Assembly: GCA_964016885.1 (NCBI GenBank)
Contig: OZ024740.1
Coordinates: 91,946,001 to 92,010,000, forward strand
Source: Eledone cirrhosa
Lineage: Eukaryota
Length of the DNA stretch: 64,000 bases
Direction of reading: 5' to 3'
A program made the position numbers and the translations under genes. Positions within the stretch are counted from its first letter, which is position 1; each line of letters begins with the position of its first letter. The notes beneath the pieces are model-generated. The model saw nothing but the letters and a program-made list of their open reading frames with translations, had not been told where the DNA came from and searched no databases. Shown here in pieces: positions 12,201 through 12,670 of the stretch.

Positions 12201-12670
12201 GCATGTAAAAGGTATGCTCAGTATTTATACTTTGAGCTTATTAACGAGAGGGTATTAATATGAGTATCAAACTCTGCCTTTCTTTTAAATGTCGGCTCCT
12301 TACTTTGGTGAGCTTACAATTTCACTGAATTTAGGCTATTATTTCTAGCCGATCCAAACATATGACATAGATATTAGGTAACTTATTACCTCATCTTGTA
12401 TTTAGTTACCTACTTCTTTAGGTGTTTGTCGCTTTTAATCTTCTCTCCCGCTGACGAAATACCTACGGATTATCTGGTACAAACACAATGTTGTAGGCGA
12501 AACTTATTATATCTCTAATTTGTCCGGGAGATTGATAGTTATTGAAACGCTTAGTAGTTTTTAACTTGTATTTTCTGTTTATTTCATATCATAAATCCGT
12601 CAAAGAAACGTGGTCTTTCAACCCTTGCAATTTTAAACACACAATGTAGTGTGTAATTTTCTATATGTAT
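12201..12670 (+). mobile_element. Non-coding HHR element family M (approx. 470 nt) between (TA)n tracts
   Basis: Bulged hairpin at 12216-12237, HHR at 12444-12531, no long ORF, (TA)n on both sides. Confidence 0.65.
12444..12531 (+). ncRNA. Type I hammerhead ribozyme (family M)
   Basis: TCTCCCG-CTGACGA-..CCTAC....GTAGG-C-GAAA-C..ATTA tatctc TAAT..G-TC-CGGGAGA: 7-bp stem I, GUC triplet. Confidence 0.75.

Follow-up and report, generated by a model that had tools for sequence, protein, structure and literature searches.

The element at positions 12201 to 12670 of the window (the whole 64,000-nucleotide stretch of Eledone cirrhosa DNA analyzed here) is a single aged unit of a non-coding, hammerhead-bearing repeat family of approximately 470 bases, family M, which is also present as head-to-tail arrays. 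A Penelope-like element (PLE) likely supplied the reverse transcriptase and endonuclease that inserted the unit, with a joined and probably circular RNA as their template. As a decayed fossil, the window copy has little to add to the family-level picture.

The features of the locus are listed in Table 1. The copy lies between (AC)n(TA)n on the 5' side and (TA)n on the 3' side. A search of the animal's own 3.0-Gb genome was performed, with 40 of 1,407 candidates scored, and the other copies aligned from query base 14 onward. Because all of them match from that base, the unit begins at 12214 and the first 13 bases are foreign, whereas the preliminary description had taken the element to start at 12201. 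The 13-mer ahead of the hairpin occurred in 1 of 26 pieces (21 distinct places), the window's own. These bases were also compared with the long end as an inverted stub; they matched in reverse at 9 of 13 positions, a result equalled by 2,603 of 20,000 random draws (13%). An inverted stub and a degraded joint are both candidate origins. No remnant of an earlier unit was detected within 1.5 kb upstream, with a single profile match at the locus. The nearest other family M copy, the best among the 40 scored of 1,407 candidates, was 82% identical to the window copy.

The sense-strand hairpin at the extreme 5' side and the 3' end at (TA)n were both correctly recognized in the preliminary description, and its statement that the hairpin elsewhere lies beyond the short 3' end is true of the window's copies of families J and K. 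The sequence TATATGTAT is present on both sides of the element as described, but it occurs 38 times in the window (20 on the plus and 18 on the minus strand) and its 3' occurrence overlaps the family's own terminal TACATATAT; it was rejected as a target-site duplication. Family M units are short (459–487 bases), AT-rich, non-coding, and without LTR. All frames of at least 120 aa overlapping the window unit were microsatellite read-through, and microsatellites also dominated the output of a repeat finder run on the window.

Table 1. Features of the family M locus and of related elements in the window
Feature	Position	Strand	Remarks
(AC)n then (TA)n microsatellite	11977..12200	.	5' flank of the family M unit
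13 non-unit bases	12201..12213	.	Candidate origins: degraded joint or inverted stub of the long end
Family M unit	12214..12670	+	Runs from just after the joint as far as the short 3' end; profile positions 7–475 of 478
Bulged hairpin	12216..12237	+	GCUC/GAGC stem, 2-base bulge, upper stem; kept in J, K, and M; predicted recognition element
3' strand of predicted joint-spanning helix	12240..12258	+	Partly mutated in the window copy; contains private TAACGAGAG
Long (tailed) 3' end site of other copies	12274..12287	+	Internal in the window copy
Type I hammerhead motif	12444..12531	+	Predicted cut after 12524; core intact, stem III and stem II base damaged
5' strand of predicted joint-spanning helix	12618..12634	+	Pairs with 12240..12258
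ACAC/GTGT hairpin just before the short end	12635..12655	+	Degenerate in the window copy; also in J and K
Short 3' end merging into (TA)n	12660..12851	+	Transition at about 12664–12670
Family J two-armed insertion	48832..49480	.	Minus arm: hammerhead motif and short end; plus arm: hairpin, tail, long end
Family K two-armed insertion	50600..51170	.	Plus arm: hairpin, tail, long end; inverted arm: short end
Broken PLE copies	9200–11680 and 27000–28700		Hydra-type cysteine motifs
PLE's own ribozyme motif and ACUC/GAGU bulged hairpin	~11430–11680		Also related inverted repeats (7555–7804)

The hammerhead motif was confirmed where it had first been noted, with stem I formed by TCTCCCG and CGGGAGA, CTGACGA at 12451–12457, GAAAC at 12499–12503, and GTC ending at 12524. 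Among 95 family M pieces spanning the ribozyme, 85 carried the core CTGANG, with all four bases found at position 7, 80 carried GAAAC, and 92 carried GTC. Stem I was TCTCTCG/CGAGAGA in 39 of these pieces, TCTCCCG/CGGGAGA in 14, and a wobble intermediate in another 14, demonstrating compensatory change across the family. A conserved core, a free position 7, and compensatory stems are the pattern expected of a hammerhead kept functional during spread, and the family M ribozyme was apparently under selection while the family spread. An Rfam scan of the window and four loci yielded no hammerhead match at E values up to 1 and returned only microsatellite-driven microRNA matches; the hammerhead call is therefore based on the core, the stems, and the covariation. 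Damage to stem III and to the base of stem II likely leaves the ribozyme of the window copy weak or dead. In family J, CAGA replaced the CUGA of the core in 24 of 24 ribozymes counted (window 49003–49079 on the minus strand and loci L111–L130), and the family has 2,839 genome candidates despite this variant; one J copy (L119) has an M-type stem III pair. A further hammerhead-like family, with a CCGAAGA core and a longer bulged hairpin, was observed in the window at 17343–17589, 20073–20260, 36857–37103, and 51700–51800; its match to the J/K/M model was weak (E 0.13–0.4), and two of its copies flank a 2.5-kb inverted repeat at 17574–20127.

The family M unit is circularly permuted, because longer copies and arrays run from the 3' end straight into the hairpin. 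Among the first 30 loci, 6 had the hairpin immediately after the 3' end, and elsewhere a 3' piece preceded a full unit. The expectation that longer copies would continue from the 3' end was thus borne out, but the linker was TATAAA-like rather than the predicted GCATGTAAAAGGT, and among the 26 pieces the predicted joint 13-mer was present only in the window copy. Neither of the outcomes that the preliminary description had named against its own reading, unrelated sequence after 12670 or a hairpin belonging to a separate adjacent insertion, was seen.

A pattern search for two ribozyme cores one unit apart yielded 35 genome matches versus 5 in a reversed control. The 20 such loci fetched (16 distinct places) were dispersed, 5'-truncated arrays of 1.5 to 5.5 units of 459–487 bases, many with an inverted arm; units in the longest array measured 472 bases. 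The arrays represent subfamilies other than the window copy's, mostly younger, that share 65–71% identity with it; among the closer relatives of the window copy, the upstream piece went no further than position 265–273, too short to include a second complete ribozyme. In the 5.5-unit array (L132), the four inner units alternate as two types, which suggests a two-unit duplication after insertion or an assembly fault, and array length consequently overstates the rounds of copying. In family K, arrays are built from 553-base units: L107 contains at least two complete ribozymes and three joints, and a private change is common to the units of L102.

Pieces of one insertion were nearest each other in 23 of 31 cases, an analysis from which 6 of 42 pieces had been removed as misaligned or entering the other arm. 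They ranked first in 13 of 30 older comparisons, a count that leaves out five rows belonging to a single duplicated locus. Eleven columns were polymorphic in more than one locus among 91 differences. No ordered, unit-specific set of variants was found to recur between insertions, and A-to-G editing scars were not seen among the partial (4 of 83) or shared (4 of 33) changes. The same rearranged family M fragment was observed on several contigs, some copies lying near contig starts (L031, L037, L043, L044, and L057), and similar pattern matches were located 43–60 kb from the starts of C9, C10, C13, and C19, which suggests a duplicated chromosome-end block. A repeat of approximately 190 bases, which we take to be SINE-like, was found repeatedly in the TA-rich joint of family M or at one ATTATT site (L006, L008, L015, L036, L056, L081, L197, and L198) and also at 48080–48250 of the window.

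Family M insertions bear Penelope-like marks. They are truncated to varying extents on the 5' side, include partial tandems and inverted 5' copies, and have two fixed 3' ends, one on each side of the hairpin. The 130 arms in 90 places ended at the short site in 82 instances, at a second, long site in 38, and elsewhere in 10; the long site lies approximately 85 bases beyond the short one, past the hairpin. Of 31 two-armed places, 24 combined a long and a short end, 4 had two short ends (two of which show a tail when the arrays are read directly), 3 were unclassed, and none had two long ends. The window's own J and K two-armed insertions obey the same long-plus-short rule. In most flanks shown, the 3' ends entered (TA)n or (CA)n. 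The 5' ends did not pile up at the predicted ribozyme cut, with 5 of 108 at positions 318–334 versus approximately 4 if evenly spread; 3 of 108 fell at 327–329, a weak hint toward cut linear monomers, and nearly every long arm continued through the predicted cut site with no scar. At 47040–47387 of the window, (TA)n tracts enclose a near-perfect palindrome of 174 bases whose arms each contain CTGATGA; it may be the two-armed stub of a different family.

The accessible text of PMC8557442 lists (TA)n targets, a tail on one side, inverted 5' copies, and partial tandems as hallmarks of PLEs, and in the in vitro system of PMC11167929, as far as its available portion goes, the PLE tail lies between two internal reverse-transcription start sites. 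From these same partly available sources, family M resembles endonuclease-bearing PLE insertions in 5' truncation, partial tandem (pseudo-LTR) copies, an inverted 5' copy, an optional tail at one end, a (TA)n or (CA)n target, and a ribozyme near the 3' end (PMC8557442; PMC11167929), and it resembles PLEs in having two apparent internal start sites beside a stem-loop (PMC11167929). Unlike the endonuclease-bearing PLEs described in those portions, family M has no open reading frame, its tail is approximately 85 rather than 30–40 bases, and its ribozyme is full-size rather than of the minimal form.

An abundant autonomous PLE, with 61,652 genome candidates and fragments in the window, is a candidate for the partner. 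It encodes the reverse-transcriptase motif GLYRDD and a CxCX5C linker as well as a GIY-YIG endonuclease domain at its C-terminal end, and the order of its parts (ribozyme motif, short end, bulged hairpin, tail, long end) is as in family M. The GIY-YIG, the linker, CxxC and CxH motifs near the endonuclease end, the ribozyme motif, and the (TA)n ends resemble the Hydra clade as presented in the available part of PMC8557442; two further motifs looked for, RWK and DKT, were not found in frame in ten broken loci of this PLE. No PLE-specific domain was found by a Pfam search. The hairpin and tail of this PLE differ in sequence from those of J, K, and M, and sequence comparison gave no clear link between the family M end and that of the single autonomous PLE family examined. 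The partner is thus identified by kind only, because the J/K/M hairpin model reached just E 1.7 on 30 loci of that family. A further element with a J-like hairpin adjoins a PLE copy near base 148 of L186 (minus strand).

The preliminary description had grouped J, K, and M as one superfamily, and this relationship holds, on the strength of M–K homology over the whole unit and a shared hairpin with covariation; the motifs cited for it, however, are private to the window copy. AATTTGTC, said to be shared with J, is indeed present in the window copy but was carried by 1 of 76 family M pieces covering the site, the family having AATCTGTC. Likewise, TAACGAGAG, said to be shared with K, was found in a single M piece of 45, the window copy itself, and in a single K piece of 35, at non-homologous positions. 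Both were rejected as family links. The M profile matched 19 of 20 K loci at E<0.01, the best at 4.6e-11 over positions 4–426 of 478, and 4 of 20 J loci weakly through J sequence (E 0.003–0.01), while a fifth match among the J loci was to a K-like neighbor; reversed controls gave E 3.4 or worse. The M ribozyme profile alone yielded no match to J or K at E<0.01. The hairpin was paired in 96.8% of cells across 27 copies, and one of its pairs is U-A in M, A-U in J, and G-C in K, a single covarying pair inherited family by family.

Folding of RNA across the tail-to-head joint predicted three helices common to J, K, and M. In joint-spanning copies, a predicted helix joins a strand located approximately 50 bases ahead of the short end to one that directly follows the hairpin; between them lie the ACAC/GUGU hairpin, the short-end template, and the bulged hairpin. 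Computed copy by copy, the pair probability of this joint helix was above 0.5 for most K (28 of 29), J (17 of 18), and young M (16 of 18) copies and for half of the old M copies (5 of 10). J strands paired with J (−11.6 kcal/mol) and not with M or K (−1.0 to −2.6 kcal/mol). Alignment folding recovered the helix for young M and K but failed to do so for the PLE, J, and old M. The two helix strands lie at opposite ends of the unit in the window copy, and the fold would therefore be local only if the RNA were a circle, a tandem, or a monomer cleaved at its ribozyme. A literature search found no account of family M or of a joint-spanning fold in PLE ends, and PMC11167929 (Figs S1B and S2C) and the supplements of PMC8557442 may bear on the latter.

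We tentatively propose, at somewhat less than an even chance, that the joint fold lets a PLE reverse transcriptase take hold of small circles made by the ribozyme and copy them around repeatedly, starting from each nicked strand of a (TA)n target, and that J, K, and M are a superfamily of such circles in which the fold was kept while the sequence changed. If so, the fold would supply the missing cis-element for retrozyme mobilization together with a 150-base minimal substrate. The short predicted fold around the start sites is a mutable target and the part most worth testing.

A course of events in five steps is proposed. A locus with at least two units, of the kind observed, would be transcribed; ribozymes would cut the transcript once per unit and the monomer would be ligated to a circle, as retrozyme work implies. 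A PLE protein would then bind the predicted joint fold and nick (TA)n or (CA)n, and copying would start at one of two fixed internal sites approximately 85 bases apart. Priming by both strands would leave one arm with the short end and the other with the long end, the pattern observed. Copying would stop variably, after 40 bases to several units and preferentially at the TA-rich joint, a distribution that is itself observed. The window copy would have started at the short end, stopped at the joint, and then decayed.

Stops at the joint were examined in differently drawn samples. In 29 places sampled by the 3' end alone, 24 arms were 5'-truncated, 4 passed the joint, and 1 started at it; in another 22 places, picked through an internal motif close to the 5' side and read by hand, 11 passed the joint, 5 stopped just inside, and 6 started at it, one of them adjoining a SINE and hence uncertain. 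Stops at the joint were enriched, with 5–6 of 17 arms reaching it versus approximately 1 expected (rough Poisson P 0.003). Among 95 short-end arms, 7 were classed as starting at the joint, 25 passed it, and most stopped earlier, and among 22 long-end arms returning to position 90, 1 stopped at the long-end site and 3 at the joint; these numbers are small and the automatic 5'-end classes approximate (for instance, L007 and L194 were wrongly flagged as SINE and L016 was left unflagged). Tail-only and unit-plus-tail arms also stopped at the joint. The data suggest that the joint is a preferred stop whichever site primed, the simplest cause being TA-rich microhomology or a bound fold.

A circle is somewhat favored as the template over an uncut tandem transcript. 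The conserved ribozyme, the two-ribozyme donors, and the 5' ends without a clear pile-up at the cut site are consistent with a circle, as are the closeness of pieces within one insertion, the lack of ordered variant sets recurring between insertions, and the circles known from coral, mussel, and axolotl retrozymes; unit length itself does not prove one. A strong competitor, to which we assign a considerable though minority share of probability, is that the same PLE machinery copied a linear tandem transcript that had not been cut, or else linear monomers linked through template jumping, so that circles were a by-product or absent and the ribozyme was a passenger. A tandem transcript would account for the same structures, and it has been proposed as template for the only PLE studied in vitro, where, according to the available part of that report, ribozyme mutants of the anole PLE insert normally, cleavage is dispensable, and uncut RNA is the main substrate (PMC11167929). 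Internal initiation at two sites, extrapolated from the same partly available source, would explain the short and long ends on this template as well (PMC11167929). Joint stops not locked to the priming site (1 versus 3 of the 22 long-end arms) fit it, and the spread of family J with a variant CAGA core weakens the need for efficient cutting. Conservation of the ribozyme with a free position 7 and compensatory stems across subfamilies, however, argues against a passenger; a mixed tandem donor would give recurring ordered, unit-specific variants, which were not found between insertions, and cut linear monomers would give a pile-up of 5' ends at the cut, which was not seen.

The preliminary description had instead read the window copy as exactly one round of a circle from the priming site. 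This version, in which the enzyme would stop on meeting its own start, we regard as unlikely. The window arm, starting at the short end, does come within a few bases of the joint, and both the seven joint-starting arms among the 95 and the enrichment of joint stops agree with it. However, the 25 arms that pass the joint and the majority that stop earlier make unit length a poor diagnostic of one round; the joint stops are not one round from the priming site, because arms primed at the other 3' end, including the tail-only and unit-plus-tail arms, also stop there, and arms with a long end do not halt where they began. Moreover, the TA-rich joint provides microhomology with the target and has often been interrupted afterwards by a SINE, and loci L001–L030 were chosen by whole-unit likeness, so that unit-length arms are over-represented among them. 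That a linear, SINE-like, (TA)n-targeting element made the tandems by inserting beside its own TA-rich end, or that unequal exchange of DNA made them, is very improbable: strong (TA)n targeting, the paired alternation in one array, and the SINE often present in the joint would suit it, but it is largely refuted by the joint sequence, fixed within subfamilies and without a variable-length microsatellite, and by tails ending at a fixed internal site (the long end), and the dispersed, 5'-truncated, two-armed arrays and the variants shared by pieces of one insertion also oppose it.

Judged by sequence features, family M belongs to the non-LTR retrozymes, a known kind, and the point added here is the predicted joint-spanning three-helix fold. 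Like the metazoan non-LTR retrozymes in the accessible portions of PMC7229834 and 10.64898/2026.07.22.740005, it has a short, non-coding, AT-rich unit with one type I hammerhead motif and occurs as monomers, dimers, and multimers, and for those elements too a circular RNA intermediate and PLE mobilization were proposed. Its unit is slightly longer than the 150–450 bases given in the available text of PMC7229834 and within the 51–972 of 10.64898/2026.07.22.740005. Circular RNAs were demonstrated for coral, mussel, and axolotl retrozymes (available portion of PMC7229834). The link between retrozymes and PLEs is already in print (10.64898/2026.07.22.740005), where, as in PMC7229834, the accessible text proposes rather than demonstrates PLE-driven movement of animal retrozymes via circular RNA. 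Unlike the non-LTR retrozymes described in those portions, family M consists mostly of dispersed truncated arms; its two fixed 3' ends, two-armed insertions, and joint fold have no counterpart among the retrozymes described there. Family M unites both halves, multi-ribozyme arrays and a full PLE insertion footprint, in one sequence.

The window also contains two reverse-transcriptase fragments (Pfam RVT_1) and a PIF1-helicase fragment, at 2–412 (minus strand), 40464–41369 (minus strand), and 63159–64000 (plus strand), which are likely remains of LINEs and a Helitron.
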